Origin: a virus
Taxonomy: Duplodnaviria > Heunggongvirae > Uroviricota > Caudoviricetes
DNA length: 22,417 nucleotides
Reading direction: 5' to 3' (one strand)
IMG/VR virus record: IMGVR_UViG_2609459831_000017
The notes under the pieces were generated by a model. The model made no database searches. It was not told the DNA's origin and saw only the letters and a list, made by a program, of their open reading frames with translations. The first letter of the stretch is position 1, and every line of letters begins with the position of its first letter. Shown here in pieces: positions 3,307 through 16,127 of this stretch. The translations under genes were made by a program, and so were the position numbers.

Positions 3307-3882
3307 CTACGGCAGTGCTGGCCATTCAATATCCTGTGCAGTTGACGTATCAACACGGTTCAGCAATACCCGATACTTTTTCCATGCTTCCAGCAACGAG
3401 ATTTCTTCCTCCGTTGCAATTTCCAGATCTGCAGCATCCTGAAGCGGCGCAATATGCTCACTGGCTACCTGCATCAGGTTGTTTTTTGTTTCTTCCGCCT
3501 CCCGGATCCGGAACAGTTTTTCTGCTTCCGTATCCTTCACCCAGGCTGTGCCGTTCCACTTCTGAAACTCCCCTTCCGGCGATAACCAGGTAACATTTTT
3601 CGGTAACGGACCGAGTTCAGAAATAAATAACGCGTCGCCGGAAGCCACGTCATAAACCGTTTTACCCCGATGATCTTCAACGAGATGCCACGATGACTCA
3701 TCACTGTTGAAAACAGCCACGAAGCCAGCCGGAATATCTGGCGGTGCAATATCGGTACTGTTTGCTGGCAGACCTGTATGAGGCGGAATATATGCATCAC
3801 CTTCACCAATAAATTCATTAGTTCCGGCCAGCAGATTATAAATTGTTATGGTCCGTGGTTGTTCACTCATTCTGAATGCCAT
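3307..3882 (-). CDS. tfaQ: tail fiber assembly protein
   Basis: 191 aa; matches recalled TfaQ/lambda Tfa. Its start overlaps the stf stop (TAATG). Confidence 0.85.
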
Positions 3883-6800
3883 TATGCAAGCCTCACAATA
3901 TAGTTAAATGCGATGTTTTTGACGGTGTTTTCCGCGTTACCAGCAGCGTTAACGGTGATGGTGTGTCCATGTGAGCCAATCGCAACGGAGTGCGTATGAG
4001 CACCAATACCGACAGTATGTGCGTGTGCACCTGCGCTTGCAGCAGTACCCGATACAGAGTGCGTATGAGCGCCTGCAGAAGAAGTGTTAACACTGTATTT
4101 AGAATAATCAGGTGATCCACTTCCCGGAGCACCACTGGAACCACCTGAAACAAATGTCATCGAATGGGTATGTGCACCGGCTGAAGCAGCCGTACCGCTA
4201 ACACTATGGGTATGTGCACCAGTGTTATTCGTGGATTTAGTGCCGTAATCAAACGATGATGTGGTTTTCGTCCCCAAATCCGTACTGGATGCGCTGGCGC
4301 TGTGGGTGTGCGATTTAATGCCGTCCTGTTCCTGAGACAATACGGCACGACCACTGGCGGGCTTGCCCTTAATCGTCCAGCCACGCATATCAGGAATAAC
4401 GCCTGACGGATAAGCCACTGCAAGTTTCGGGTATGCAGATTTGTCAAAAGTCTGCCCCTGCATCAGGGCATAGCCAGACGGAACGGTATCTGATGGCCAC
4501 GGGATTGGTGCGCCGACTGGGTAGCTTTCTGGTGGAAGATTTTTCGAGGTATAAACTTCTGCCCAGTCATCCTCAAAACCATAACCGTCTCTTGAAGAAC
4601 GGTAGAACAGACCACCATTTCTGTAATGCGCCTTCATCTGCAAGGTCCGGCAACTTCCGACTCCGGTATAGAAGTTAACCAGAATATAGCTGTCGCCAGA
4701 GCGGGTGACATTGTAAGCACCTGATTCGGCATTCCAGGGAACGCCACCATCCGCATCGGCATATGTATCCGTTGCCCTTCTGGCAAAAGCAGCCACATGC
4801 GCGGCGGTTAAAGTAATATCTCTGGAACCATCAAACTCAACACCAGAAACCAGTCTTGGCGTTTGCAGCTTTGTTGCTGTTAATGCATTACCGTTCAGAC
4901 TTGCGGACAGTTTGGTTCCAATAACCAGTTCGCCGGTTGCGTTATAAATAGCAAACGGTCTTAATGTATTCCAGCCACCATAAACATCACCTTGATTGGT
5001 AAGCAGCAGGTAAGTTTTAGCGCCATCATTACGCCATAATGCACCATACTCCCCACCTATCATTCGAATCTGATTACCACCACGCGCTACAATTTCGTCT
5101 GTGGCAAAAAGTTTTTTGCACGACAAATTATCGTTAACGATTAACGAATGAGACTCATAAAAACCACGCCCACTCTTAAAATCAAGGATAACGTCCGCCG
5201 CGATACATTCAGTCGCTGGATTTGTTGCCCCAAACTTATAGGTCGTATCATTAACAACGAGATCAGCACCAGGTGCGGATATTGACAGGCCATCTTCGAT
5301 AAACGCAAAAACAGGGAAAGCAGCGCCATCAACATAGAACACAGAGCGCAAATCATCGCCCTTATTACTCATCATTATTGAGTGGATGGCTCGTTCATTG
5401 TTTTGATATTGCCAGAACATTCCATAAGCATAACGCCCCCTGTCAGTCCAGCCACCAGGCATAACAAATCCGTTAAACTCGCAGTTATTCATCGGATCGC
5501 CTGCGGTTCGCGTTGCCGTGGTGATAATGACCCTTGATGCCAGTTCGCTTACTGAGCCAGCAGAACGCATAACAACAACAGGGTAATATTTTCCAGATGT
5601 TGCACCTGCAGGAGCGTTAACCCGCACATAACGCATACCACGCTTATCAGCAAAGTCTGTTTTACTGACCGCGTTAATGTTGTTCAGGAAGCGTCCCTTA
5701 TCGGGTATATCAGTGCCGTTCTGGTCTTTCTGCAGACGTTTCTCTGCATTGTCATAGGCTGATTTTACTGCCTTTGGCGTTGCCGCCAGCGTTTCAGACG
5801 TACTGTTGGTCGCACTGCTGAGCTGTACTATCCCCTTTTTCGTCGTGCTCGCATCCTCAAGCGCCACGGCGGATGCAATATCCTCTGCCCGTTTTGCTGC
5901 TGTCTCGGCGCGCGTTGCCGCGGATTCCGCCGTACTTTTGCTCTGAGCTGCCGCCGTCGCACTGCCAGCTGCCTCTGTCGCCTTCGTGGATGCCGTCGTG
6001 GCGCTGCCCTTCGCTGCTGACGCCTGTCTGGTCGCCTCATCTTTTGAAGCAGACGCCGATGATGCCGATGACGCCGCCGAACTGGCTGACGATGCGGCAG
6101 CCGTTTTTGAGGATTCTGCGCTGGTTTCCGACGCTTTCGCGTTCGTTTCGGATGTCTTCGCTGCGGAAGCTGACCTCGCTGCTACCGTGGCCTGTTCAGT
6201 GGCTTCGCCAGCCTTCGTTGTGGCTGTTGAAGCGGATGATGCGGCGCTTTCTGCCGACTTTCCGGCAGCGGTGGCACTGGCTGAGGCCTGCCCGGCATTT
6301 GTTGACGCGGCGCTGGCAGATGAGGCAGCCGCTGTTTTTGAGTCTGCTGCTGCGGAGGCACTCTGTCCCGCTGCCGTCTCAGAAGACTTTGCGTTCGTCT
6401 CGGACGTTTTTGCCGCCTTCGCGGAAGTTCCTGCCGCTGTTGCCGAGGAGGCTGCACGACTGGCGCTCGAGGCTGCGCTCGTTTCTGATGATTTTGCCGC
6501 CTCTTTTGAAGCCGACGCATCCCTGGCTGAGGTGGCAGCTTCTGACGCTTTCGTGGTCGCGGTGGATGCAGAAGTGGCGGCTGATTGTTCTGACGCTGCC
6601 GCATTCGTTTCTGACGTTTTCGCCGCACCGGCACTGGTAGCCGCCGCGCTTTTTGAGGACTCTGCAGCGGCAGCACTTTTTGAGGCTTCAGTGGCCTTTG
6701 TTGATGCCGTTCCTGCGCTGGAAGACGCTGACTGAGCCGACGACGCGGCCTGTCCGGCTGACGTGCTGGCTGCACGTGCTGAATCTGCAGCATCAGTCGC

Positions 6801-7232
6801 ACGGGTTGCCGCCTCACTGGCAGATGTGCTGGCATCACTGGCTGACTTCTTTGCGGCTGCCGTGTTCTGTGCCACCACGGACGCGTTACGCGCCACCTCT
6901 TCCACCATCAGTTCAAAACGACGCAGTGCCTCCGGACGGGCATCATCCTCCGTCATGGCACCGAGAAAATCATTCAGCGTACCGGGTTGAGAATCTTCAT
7001 ACACGGTGATGGTCCCGGCATGTGACGGCGGGAATCCCTCCACCAACAGAATAACGCTGTACTGACCGTACTCAACGTCCATGCTGTAACGCCCGGCTTC
7101 ATCCGGATTTTCTGAGGCCAGCGTGTTCACCACCACAGTGGTACTGTTACGTTTTGCTTTCAGCTGGATTGTGCAGTTCTGTACCGGTTTTCCTGTGCCG
7201 TCTTTCAGTACACCTGAAATCTTTACTGCCAT
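3882..7232 (-). CDS. stfQ: side tail fiber protein, full length
   Basis: 1116 aa from ATG at 7230-7232 ([12 protein letters not shown]...) with GGGGTGA Shine-Dalgarno; the track ORF uses an upstream GTG at 7238. Conserved N-terminal baseplate-attachment region, long Ala/Ser/Thr-rich repeat block, and C-terminal His-rich GAHTHS repeats typical of lambda Stf/StfR. Confidence 0.85.
5885..6875 (-). repeat. imperfect tandem low-complexity coding repeats (Ala/Ser/Thr-rich) inside stf
   Basis: Reiterated motifs ([18 protein letters not shown]) in the Stf product. The GC-rich repeat DNA produces long artefactual ORFs in other frames on both strands of the track. Confidence 0.6.
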
Positions 7233-12308: not shown

Positions 12309-12514
12309 TTCATTTTCACTTTTTTAAATCCAACGACAGACGGCTGGCATTTAAGTATTGTGAAATATTATCAAATGTAATCATCATTGATTTACAAAAG
12401 ATACATTTTGCCCCGAAAGGATTCATGTCAGAAACATCAAAAGATGATGTTCTATACTGGGAACCATGACAACACGGGCATCTAAAGTGAATATGGTTTG
12501 TAATATTGTCTACC

Positions 12515-12727
12515 TCAAAGCGCCACTACATGAACAGCGGCAGGACCTTTAGGTCCGTTCTCAATACCAAATTCAACTTCCTGATTCTCAGTTAATGTTT
12601 TGAAATCGTTGCTCTGAATTGCTGAGAAATGGACAAACACATCTTTGCTGCCATCTTTCGGCGTGATGAAACCAAAACCTTTTTCAGGGTTAAACCATTT
12701 CACTAAACCAGTCATTTTGTTAGACAT
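12515..12727 (-). CDS. cspI: cold-shock protein, CspA family
   Basis: 70 aa ([38 protein letters not shown]...) with RNP1/RNP2 motifs (KGFGFI, VFVHF). Confidence 0.9.
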
Positions 12728-13089
12728 AATTATTACCTTTTGAAGAAATTAGCCCTTGGGCAGAATGGTCCGAAAAAAAATATCAGAGAGAAAAACCAAC
12801 AAGGAAATCTCAAGAGGTACAAATAATAAAATTATAACAATGACTGCTTCAGATAAATTTGTAACAAACCAGAACACCATTAACGCATGATTAACCACCC
12901 ATAGCAAGGATTACTTTTGTAAAGAAAAACACAGCAATGAAAGAATAGCTTTATTTATTAATAAAACGTGTCATTCTGATTAAGACCTTTTATCTTACCC
13001 TTAAGATTTCAGGAATTTTGGCTCATGGAAGAGTCCTTTTTATTTAAATTTTACATTCCGCGATGTAAATGTTCCGATTTAATATTACC

Positions 13090-14429: not shown

Positions 14430-14645
14430 TTACTCTCCTCTCGCAGCCTTACGCCTGTCTTCTTTAATCTTGAAATAAAGATTTGTCAGATACGTCAGCA
14501 GGCCAAAAACCAGGCTACCCAGCACACCGATTGCAGCCCACTGTGACGGAGTTACTTTATCGAGTAACTGCAATGCCCAGAAACCAGCATTACCCGCCGA
14601 TGTGCCATAGGCAACACCTGTTGTTAACTTATCCATTGATTTCAT
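14430..14645 (-). CDS. essQ: class II holin (pinholin, S21-like) with dual start MKSMDK
   Basis: 71 aa from ATG at 14643-14645 ([53 protein letters not shown]...): two transmembrane domains and a charged C-terminus. The track ORF extends 25 codons upstream. Confidence 0.85.
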
Positions 14646-14864
14646 ATCCTCACCCCGATGTACACGGATGGTGCAATATGTTTGAAAAGATCGGAGTCTA
14701 CGGGGTAGTTTTGACAGCACACGTTGTTCTCAACGGCGCTAAAAAAACATACACATTAAAAATGTGGGTAATTATTTTGAAAGAAAGTCATATATAAAAT
14801 AATAATACGAGAAATGTTTTCATATTTAGTGTACTGTATACGGCCATTTATACAGGAAAAGCCT

Positions 14865-15035
14865 ATGTCAGAACGTAAAAACTCAAAATCACGCCGTAAT
14901 TATCTCGTTAAATGTTCCTGCCCAAACTGCACCCAAGAGTCAGAACACAGTTTTTCAAGAGTACAAAAAGGTGCCCTTTTGATCTGCCCTCATTGCAACA
15001 AAGTATTCCAGACAAATCTTAAAGCTGTAGCCTGA
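14865..15035 (+). CDS. small zinc-ribbon-like protein (56 aa)
   Basis: ATG at 14865 with AGGA 7 nt upstream. Cys clusters C-x-C-x2-C (CSCPNC) and C-x2-C (CPHC) in MSERKNSKSRRNYLVKCSCPNCTQESEHSFSRVQKGALLICPHCNKVFQTNLKAVA. Opposite strand to the late genes. Confidence 0.5.
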   Translation: MSERKNSKSRRNYLVKCSCPNCTQESEHSFSRVQKGALLICPHCNKVFQTNLKAVA

Positions 15036-15087
15036 TTGATTTTATTAGTAACAAGTATTTTTTATATTTTAATAATATATTTAAAGC

Positions 15088-15117
15088 AGATAATAAAAAA
15101 CCCGCCTGAGCGGGTTT
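15088..15117 (-). terminator. predicted intrinsic terminator (mainly minus strand)
   Basis: AAACCCGC-CTGA-GCGGGTTT hairpin; on the minus strand it is followed by TTTTTTATTATC. Confidence 0.5.
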
Positions 15118-15398
15118 GAGATTGTGGTGCTTTTTGTGGGAGTCATCCACTTACGCACTTTGTTTTGCCATGCCAGCAGTTAGCTTCTGCTGTAAAACTA
15201 TTCATGCAGCAAACCTGCACTTCACCACAATGGTTAGCATACTTTTCCTGATTAAGATTTTGCCAAATATGCTAGCCATTGTTTCATGTATTGGACCTCC
15301 TTACTTTTTATTAAAGAGATCCAATATTCACTACTCTGTCCGTATCTCTACTCAGGCATCAGCCTTCTTCGTTATCGTATACAGACGAGCGATGAATT

Positions 15399-15614
15399 TT
15401 AATCAGTAATGATGACATTTGCTGCTGCAGGACCTTTAGCACCACTCTCTATAGAGAAGGTAACCTTTTGACCTTCAAATAAGGTTCGATAATTATCATT
15501 CTGAATCGCAGAAAAATGCACAAACACATCTTTACTACCATCAACAGGAGAAATAAAGCCGAAACCTTTATCAGCGTTAAACCATTTTACTAAACCAGTC
15601 ATTTTATTTGACAT
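15399..15614 (-). CDS. cspB: cold-shock protein, CspA family
   Basis: 71 aa ([53 protein letters not shown]...). Confidence 0.9.
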
Positions 15615-15914
15615 TCTACATTCCTTAACTTGAGCCTTTCGGCATAAATGGTTTGCATAACAGAAACGACTTCGTACTTAATTGGAGAGACTCAAAGAAG
15701 GAATAAGTGAATAACACCTGAAATGAGAACTGCTTTAGTAAACTACTTCGTATATCGTCTGTTCTTCAAACCGACGCAATCATTAACGCATAGTTGAACA
15801 TATGAAGCAATGTTTATTTTAGACATCCAGCCATCTTCAACCCCATCAAAAAACTATAGCTTTCTTCAGGAACGTGTGTATAGTGCGCCAAGTTATCAGT
15901 ATTAAGGAATTTTT

Positions 15915-16127
15915 TTGTCCCGTAAAATGACAGGAATTGTCAAAACCTTTGACGGCAAAAGCGGCAAGGGTCTTATCACCCCATCCGATGGTCGTATCGA
16001 TGTCCAGCTTCATGTTTCAGCGCTCAATCTCCGCGATGCAGAAGAAATTACCACCGGATTACGCGTGGAATTTTGCCGGATAAATGGTCTGCGTGGCCCT
16101 TCAGCTGCCAATGTTTACCTTTCATGA
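15915..16127 (+). CDS. cspF: cold-shock-domain protein, divergent CspA-family paralog
   Basis: 70 aa ([39 protein letters not shown]...). TTG start at 15915 with AGGA 7 nt upstream; the first ATG is 4 codons in. Confidence 0.85.

Follow-up and report, generated by a model that had tools for sequence, protein, structure and literature searches.

The small zinc-ribbon gene between the holin gene and cspB in the viral DNA that we analyzed (a single stretch of 22,417 nucleotides, hereafter the window) is ynfU, which is already known and annotated in RefSeq, Pfam and NCBIfam. The gene is translated and strongly constrained, is probably an independently transcribed cargo gene of the Qin prophage, and is not specific to phages. 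It is part of a small ynfU-cspB-cspF block, sometimes accompanied by a YmcF-like gene, whose locations include the core chromosome in several Enterobacterales and, as cargo, the interval between Q and holin in some lambdoid phages. The conserved neighbor of ynfU is a cold-shock-domain (CSD) gene, not a phage gene, and ynfU looks like host-type cargo travelling with cold-shock genes, not like a phage regulator. What our analysis adds to the published description is the conservation pattern across the family, the purifying selection acting on the gene, its mostly non-prophage distribution, and its linkage to csp genes.

Identity and boundaries of the gene

A 501-bp query around the open reading frame matched 1653 of 5426 complete E. 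coli genomes (30%), in which the frame is annotated as "ynfU: putative zinc-binding protein YnfU". The preliminary description of this DNA had suspected that a small-protein annotation already existed here, and ynfU (identifier b4776, Qin prophage of E. coli K-12) is that annotation. The query was 100% identical in DNA sequence to K-12 strain MG1655, and the gene in the window does not differ from its K-12 form: it encodes an identical 56-aa product and likewise lies between essQ and cspB. The window proteins are likewise identical to their MG1655 Qin counterparts. Gene order in MG1655 is rzpQ, rrrQ, ydfR and essQ (all on the minus strand), ynfU (plus), cspB (minus), cspF (plus) and quuQ/ydfT (minus); essQ carries the name essD in the MG1655 RefSeq record that we used. 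The gene had been placed between the holin gene and cspB, on the strand opposite the late genes, and that is where it lies, opposite the Q-dependent late and lysis genes, with essQ and cspB on the minus strand and ynfU on the plus strand.

The reading frame runs from an ATG at 14865-14867 to a TGA stop at 15033-15035 and encodes, as described earlier, 56 amino acids with two cysteine clusters, CSCPNC (residues 17-22) and CPHC (residues 41-44). The E. coli protein, MSERKNSKSRRNYLVKCSCPNCTQESEHSFSRVQKGALLICPHCNKVFQTNLKAVA, has a mass of 6.4 kDa and a pI of 9.6. The span first given for the gene, 14814-15117, holds a real reading frame and can be made more precise at both ends: 14814 is an unused upstream ATG, and 15117 is the 3' end of a hairpin. 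We rejected the 73-aa reading that would begin at this in-frame ATG (14814..15035). RefSeq and the discoverers of the gene use the 56-aa form, the stretch upstream of 14865 is unconserved in other genera, and the start codon of the 56-aa form is kept in all 80 species loci that we compared (78 ATG, 2 GTG), with a Shine-Dalgarno GGA core before it in the 23-25 upstream regions aligned.

Table 1. Positions in the window of ynfU, its neighboring genes and the signals around it.
Feature	Position	Strand	Remarks
essQ holin	14430-14645	-	First gene of the Qin lysis cassette; divergent from ynfU; context, outside the module
Candidate sigma-70 promoter	14777..14806	+	TTGAAA, 18 nt, AATAAT; 10/12 matches; consensus scan
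Conserved block GTGTAnnGT	14829..14837	+	28-36 nt before the ATG; alternative -10 region or leader element
Shine-Dalgarno core AGGA	14854..14857	+	7 nt before the ynfU ATG; read from the sequence
ynfU CDS	14865..15035	+	56 codons plus TGA; basic zinc-ribbon small protein
G+C-rich hairpin AAACCCGCCTGAGCGGGTTT	15098..15117		Between convergent ynfU and cspB
cspB	15399..15614	-	Convergent cold-shock-domain neighbor; part of the conserved ynfU-cspB-cspF block
cspF	15915..16127	+	Third gene of the ynfU-cspB-cspF block

Translation of ynfU

The gene came to light in ribosome profiling that used stalled initiation complexes (Weaver et al. 2019, bioRxiv 10.1101/511675). In the same work, immunoblotting of a chromosomal SPA-tag fusion confirmed the protein in uninduced K-12 grown in LB at 37°C. 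None of the other newly found small proteins was as abundant as YnfU, and none of them had a recognizable motif, which in YnfU is "a pair of zinc knuckles"; modelling gave it a moderate match to PA0128 (bioRxiv 10.1101/511675). PIRT-seq, a transposon-reporter screen, detected ynfU independently. Translation, which had been proposed as a check on the reading frame, is therefore borne out by published Ribo-seq, SPA-tag immunoblotting and PIRT-seq. We found no functional study of ynfU in the literature, where it is mentioned in the discovery paper, in benchmarks, in connection with an intergenic SNP of an evolution experiment, and in one list from a transcriptome study.

Signals around the gene

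The ribosome-binding site had been called good from the sequence of the window, and it is also conserved: the GGA of the AGGA core 7 nt before the ATG is kept at the same position in 23-25 aligned upstream regions (23 genera or species). Promoter-like sites occurred in the region upstream of ynfU at about the rate seen in shuffled sequence (4 found, 3.4 expected), so the sigma-70 promoter in Table 1 is only a candidate; its AATAA block aligns with a partly conserved column of the upstream alignment. The TGTA and GT columns of the GTGTAnnGT block are kept in at least 90% of the 23 aligned upstream regions. RpoE- and RpoH-holoenzyme SELEX peaks at MG1655 positions 1638930 and 1639072 fall, taking what we presume to be the coordinates of cspB as the reference, at about 14966 and 15108 of the window, inside and just downstream of ynfU and away from the candidate promoter. 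These peaks, in the spacer given as "essQ < < cspB", were attributed to essQ in the genomic SELEX study of 2017, when ynfU was unannotated (PMC5493296).

In E. coli, the leader of ynfU has the potential for a perfect hairpin of 7 bp (14834-14855, plus strand; CUGUAUA-N8-UAUACAG), specific to Escherichia, in which the 3' arm reaches into the first bases of the Shine-Dalgarno sequence. We considered and rejected an RNA thermometer or a hairpin that sequesters the Shine-Dalgarno sequence, the folding energy of the leader being unremarkable (z = -0.97). RNAalifold returned 0 conserved pairs for the leader over 23 sequences.

Downstream of ynfU, the hairpin in Table 1 scores as an intrinsic terminator on the minus strand, with the tail TTTATTATCT, and the T tract on the plus strand is weak. 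It is therefore probably the terminator of cspB, and it may serve ynfU too. About 280 nt separate this hairpin from the cspB stop codon (15118-15398), which is long for a 3' region; the entire gap between ynfU and cspB is only 93-410 nt in other genera. The interval 15118-15398 gave no Rfam match at the gathering threshold, and a weak second terminator-like site lies at 15204-15220 on the minus strand. In at least four E. coli genomes (H1-H4), an IS200C element (tnpA) occupies the ynfU-cspB intergenic region with both genes intact; in E. coli EH01-18-04-A, the interval from the ynfU stop to cspB that holds the insertion corresponds to about 15036-15398 of the window.

Conservation and range of the family

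We retrieved one locus per species from 80 species of Enterobacterales. Conservation of the cysteines, the second check on the zinc-ribbon reading, was complete for the four in the CPxC motifs, with C19, P20, C22, C41, P42 and C44 identical in all 80 species. R4, K5, N12, L14, S26-E27-H28-S29, R32, K35, G36 and L39 were also invariant, so that the segment SEHS..R..KG between the knuckles is 100% conserved in this set. C17 was kept in 96% of the species and lost in three (Atlantibacter, one Citrobacter) and in all distant members; it is predicted to be dispensable, which leaves CPxC...CPxC as the putative ligand set of YnfU. The median pairwise dN/dS was 0.13 (5th-95th percentile 0.04-0.30, 878 pairs). 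The net charge (K+R-D-E) ranged only from +6 to +8 across the 80 species, and the median pI was 9.5. Since the frame is translated and its cysteines are conserved, the reading as a protein-coding zinc-ribbon gene stands.

The protein scored 107.3 bits against Pfam PF23499 (YnfU; cut-off 27) and 79.4 bits against NCBIfam NF038384 (cut-off 36), matching both over its full length, and it has the entire signature of these families (about 55 aa, CPxC...CPxC, SEHS between). Every other zinc-ribbon family among the Pfam and NCBIfam profiles scored below its own threshold. A profile search against zinc-ribbon families, also suggested at the outset, thus places the protein far above the cut-offs of a family of its own.

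A word-indexed search returned 49 YnfU homologs; every one carried PF23499, and nearly all were named from Enterobacteriaceae. When 1.84 billion cluster representatives were searched exhaustively with a profile, only 43 matched, all of them Enterobacterales small proteins or repetitive Cys-rich proteins. The most distant genuine homologs came from Cronobacter, Hafnia, Erwinia, Mangrovibacter and Jejubacter, and the four cysteines and an (S/A)-E-H-S core persist in the distant members from the first four of these genera. Long "cluster members" of 382 and 417 aa, which we considered as possible YnfU domain fusions, proved to be unrelated enzymes. Matches so few, and from Enterobacterales, indicate that the family is restricted to this order, and with only 43 matches in 1.84 billion there is no remote family from which to borrow a function.

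Linkage to cold-shock genes

A CSD gene lay within 1.2 kb of ynfU in 58 of the 80 species loci, compared with about 0.5% expected for a random position; the species are related, so that these counts do not represent independent events. In half of the loci (40/80), a convergent cspB-like gene is immediately downstream of ynfU. The arrangements comprised a convergent cspB-like gene followed by a cspF-like gene (26 loci), a cspB-like gene alone (14) and a cspF-like gene alone (9), with an upstream csp gene in others. The whole ynfU-cspB-cspF block occupies 14865-16127 of the window and, among the retrieved loci, 5676-7204 of L090/L091 and 6001-7288 of L092/L093.

Several of these contexts are plainly chromosomal. 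In Kluyvera, the order YmcF-like, YnfU, CSD, CSD lies between thrS and yniD in the core chromosome, with no phage genes near. The neighbors of ynfU are tautomerase, GST and transport genes in Enterobacter, amino-acid metabolism and PTS genes in Klebsiella, and regulators and dehydrogenases in Franconibacter.

Each of the linked genes is transcribed as a unit of its own: terminators separate ynfU from cspB in E. coli and from cspF in K. oxytoca. An operon of ynfU and cspF, considered for Klebsiella and Raoultella where the two genes share an orientation, was rejected because K. oxytoca has terminators and a separate promoter-like site between them. Rfam cspA-type thermoregulator leaders were found upstream of cspB (15383-15775, minus strand, 158.8 bits) and of cspI (12488-12873, minus strand, 112.8 bits); the window thus contains two csp units inducible by cold.

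Predicted fold and possible RNA binding

A first AF2 model (pLDDT 59.6) gave uninformative fold searches and was set aside. The second, with distant members added, had a mean pLDDT of 74.6 (79-85 across residues 11-50) and the element order strand (14-18), knuckle (19-22), strand (25-29), short helix (30-35), strand (38-40), knuckle (41-44), strand (47-49), with both termini disordered. YnfU is thus predicted to be a single zinc ribbon with its knuckles at the turns of two beta-hairpins. From motif and model together, the knuckles C19-P-x-C22 and C41-P-x-C44 presumably hold one zinc ion through their four cysteines, and the N-terminal tail (R4, K5, R11, N12) is predicted to be basic, disordered and conserved.

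Structure searches with the second model returned small generic zinc ribbons as neighbors, none of them significant. The top Foldseek matches were archaeal 30S aS21 (Methanosarcina) and its relatives, including HVO_2753 (probability 0.91-0.96, E 0.13-0.2, TM ~0.46-0.5), in a match list that is biased by the over-representation of ribosomal proteins among small zinc ribbons in the PDB. Chain 9o17_AZ is aS21 (PMC12605026). A sequence-profile search of the PDB gave Tim15 (E 0.01), L44e (0.03), aS21 (0.19) and PA0128 (2akl; 0.48), all weak, and there was a weak match to the NCBIfam family "Zn-ribbon RNA-binding protein". Like aS21 and HVO_2753, YnfU is a free-standing zinc ribbon of about 50-60 aa with CPxC knuckles, and it shares 26-34% identity with them over 35 columns; unlike YnfU, which has two knuckles and occurs only in Enterobacterales, those proteins are archaeal and carry four C(P)XCG motifs, and the match is not significant. 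With two knuckles only, YnfU scored 13.1 bits against the profile for aS21/HVO_2753-like proteins (NF011481, cut-off 61) and falls outside it. It also falls outside the PhnA/YjdM N-terminal zinc ribbons (PF08274), to which the PA0128 match of the discoverers belongs, with 22.4 bits against a cut-off of 30.8; the Foldseek E-value for 2akl, obtained with the first model, was 0.2. The similarities to aS21, Tim15, L44e and PA0128 are weak, and we take them as leads, not as family membership.

The constant positive charge, the strong csp linkage, and the weak sequence and structure pointers to rRNA-binding zinc ribbons lead us to propose, tentatively, that YnfU is an RNA-binding, possibly ribosome-binding, protein that works alongside the neighboring cold-shock-domain proteins in one network of RNA handling or stress response, a reading that we hold to be plausible if somewhat short of probable. 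The contact would be made by the basic tail and the invariant surface between the knuckles. Against RNA binding, zinc ribbons contact proteins as often as nucleic acids. Against a place in the Csp network, the good expression of YnfU in LB at 37°C means that it is not obviously cold-specific, no csp gene lies near ynfU in 22 of the 80 loci, ynfU and the csp genes are transcribed separately, and the species counts are not independent.

A rather doubtful alternative, though one to be taken seriously, is that YnfU, like many small proteins of bacteria, binds and modulates one larger protein and has no nucleic-acid ligand, the csp neighborhood being only a shared AT-rich island of small accessory genes. 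It draws on the alignment with Tim15/Zim17/Hep1 (PF05180), the best PDB profile match, in which the aligned segment reads C-x-x-C-x-x-x-S-x-H-x-x-S ... K-G-x-x-L-I-x-C-P-H-C, and on a LysW neighbor. The similarity nevertheless lies below threshold, at 13.5 bits for zf-DNL against a cut-off of 27, and the residues after C44, the last of the second knuckle, are variable, with no conserved D-N-L, which leaves YnfU outside that family. A polyanionic ligand would also explain more simply than a protein partner why the charge is +6 to +8 throughout and why 58 of the 80 loci have a csp gene close by.

ynfU in phages and prophages

The antisense placement of ynfU had initially suggested a role in maintenance or regulation of the prophage, and this part of the preliminary description is not supported. 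Homologs of the Qin lysis genes occurred within 5 kb of ynfU in only 10 of the 80 species loci, the remaining contexts include chromosomal ones, and the protein had no convincing match in PHROGs (the best, E 0.0023, covered part of a 120-position profile of a function-unknown family) and hit 0 families at E <= 1 among the PADLOC-DB defence models. YnfU was encoded by only 8 of 50,697 phage records.

Where ynfU does occur in lambdoid phages, its position is often the same. In Escherichia, Citrobacter and Superficieibacter (pro)phages, the ynfU-csp block lies between Q and holin. The viable lambdoid phages HannyBb, Tritos, 2H10 and PhiR42_1 have ynfU divergent from holin and antisense to the late genes, two Superficieibacter prophages repeat the order Q, cspF, cspB, ynfU, holin, and a Klebsiella phage has a homolog of 59% identity, again divergent from holin. 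In phage PHB10, ynfU is beside cspB/cspF near the integrase and far from the lysis genes.

In the HannyBb record (4085-6846 of the retrieved locus), some 2 kb from the Q-like gene to cspF are filled with about 20 hypothetical ORFs of about 30 aa on one strand, which looks over-called; the record gives ynfU in its 73-aa form and omits cspB and cspF, both of which tblastn finds. Elsewhere in the window, at 3341-3539 on the minus strand, there is a full-length Rfam match to the small RNA gene IS009 (RF02111, 220.9 bits).

That ynfU serves the prophage, its protein or its head-on transcript regulating the lysis or late genes, maintenance or phage exclusion, thus seems quite improbable to us. The gene is always just upstream of and divergent from holin in Qin, in HannyBb, Tritos, 2H10 and PhiR42_1, in the Superficieibacter prophages and in the Klebsiella phage, this Q-to-holin slot is a classic cargo site, and 30% of E. 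coli genomes carry the gene. However, 70 of the 80 species loci lack adjoining Qin lysis homologs and several are plain chromosomal, phage records with ynfU are few, the protein has no convincing PHROG match and no PADLOC match, and there is no overlap between the ynfU transcript and the holin coding sequence. The strong purifying selection in chromosomal, non-prophage contexts argues for a function independent of the phage. The opposite orientation to late transcription would then be simply that of an independently expressed cargo gene, with no regulatory device in it.

The closest parallel in phage biology is with the lambda bor-type cargo genes ("morons"), which are independently expressed from the opposite strand within the late region. 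Like these, ynfU is small, brings a ribosome-binding site with it, is flanked by a hairpin terminator, lies on the opposite strand in a lambdoid late region, and is expressed from a resident prophage without induction, its promoter being a consensus candidate of a kind found at background rate. Unlike bor, it encodes a basic zinc ribbon of cytoplasmic type and not a lipoprotein, and it arrives in a three-gene csp block that is also found outside phages.

A role in the homeostasis of zinc or iron, as a metal-handling protein (zinc buffer, chaperone or sensor), we consider most improbable: the database name "putative zinc-binding protein", one preprint in which ynfU is grouped with the suf genes as up-regulated together, and the fifth, nearly conserved cysteine C17 favor it, but a Cys4 ribbon site that stands alone usually has a structural role, Atlantibacter and all distant members lack C17, no metal transporter or Zur-regulon gene recurred in the neighborhoods examined, and Zur regulation was rejected since, by comparison with the Zur-box consensus, the partial left half-site of E. 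coli, GAAATGTT (14811-14818), has no palindromic right half and is unconserved in other genera.

Meaning of the csp block

The tentative reading of YnfU as an RNA-binding protein of the Csp network has a more specific form, which we think unlikely but worth stating. YnfU would be the zinc-knuckle partner in a mobile "cold-shock island" (ynfU-cspB-cspF, sometimes ymcF), binding RNA or the 30S subunit and cooperating with CspB/CspF-type proteins, a split counterpart of the eukaryotic proteins that combine a CSD with zinc knuckles, spread by lambdoid phages. In Lin28, a eukaryotic CSD and a Cys-rich zinc module act together on RNA (PMC3424542). The knuckles of Lin28 are of the retroviral CCHC type and are fused to the CSD, whereas YnfU is a Cys4 ribbon that is separately encoded and transcribed, and the likeness, which lies in the conserved gene neighborhood of CSD and zinc knuckle, is offered as an analogy only.

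The gene has been known since 2019, when its translation and zinc-knuckle motif were also published, and recovering it here matters little as a finding. The by-product is a testable lead: ynfU sits in a block of csp genes that moves between chromosomes and lambdoid phages, and its product, a uniformly basic Cys4 ribbon under strong constraint, is encoded beside cspB/cspF-type genes across Enterobacterales, both inside and outside prophages. Should YnfU prove to be an RNA- or ribosome-binding partner of the Csp proteins, a function would have been found for an orphan small protein that ranks among the better-expressed ones of E. coli, a component would be added to the Csp network, and lambdoid phages would be carrying a host stress module as cargo.
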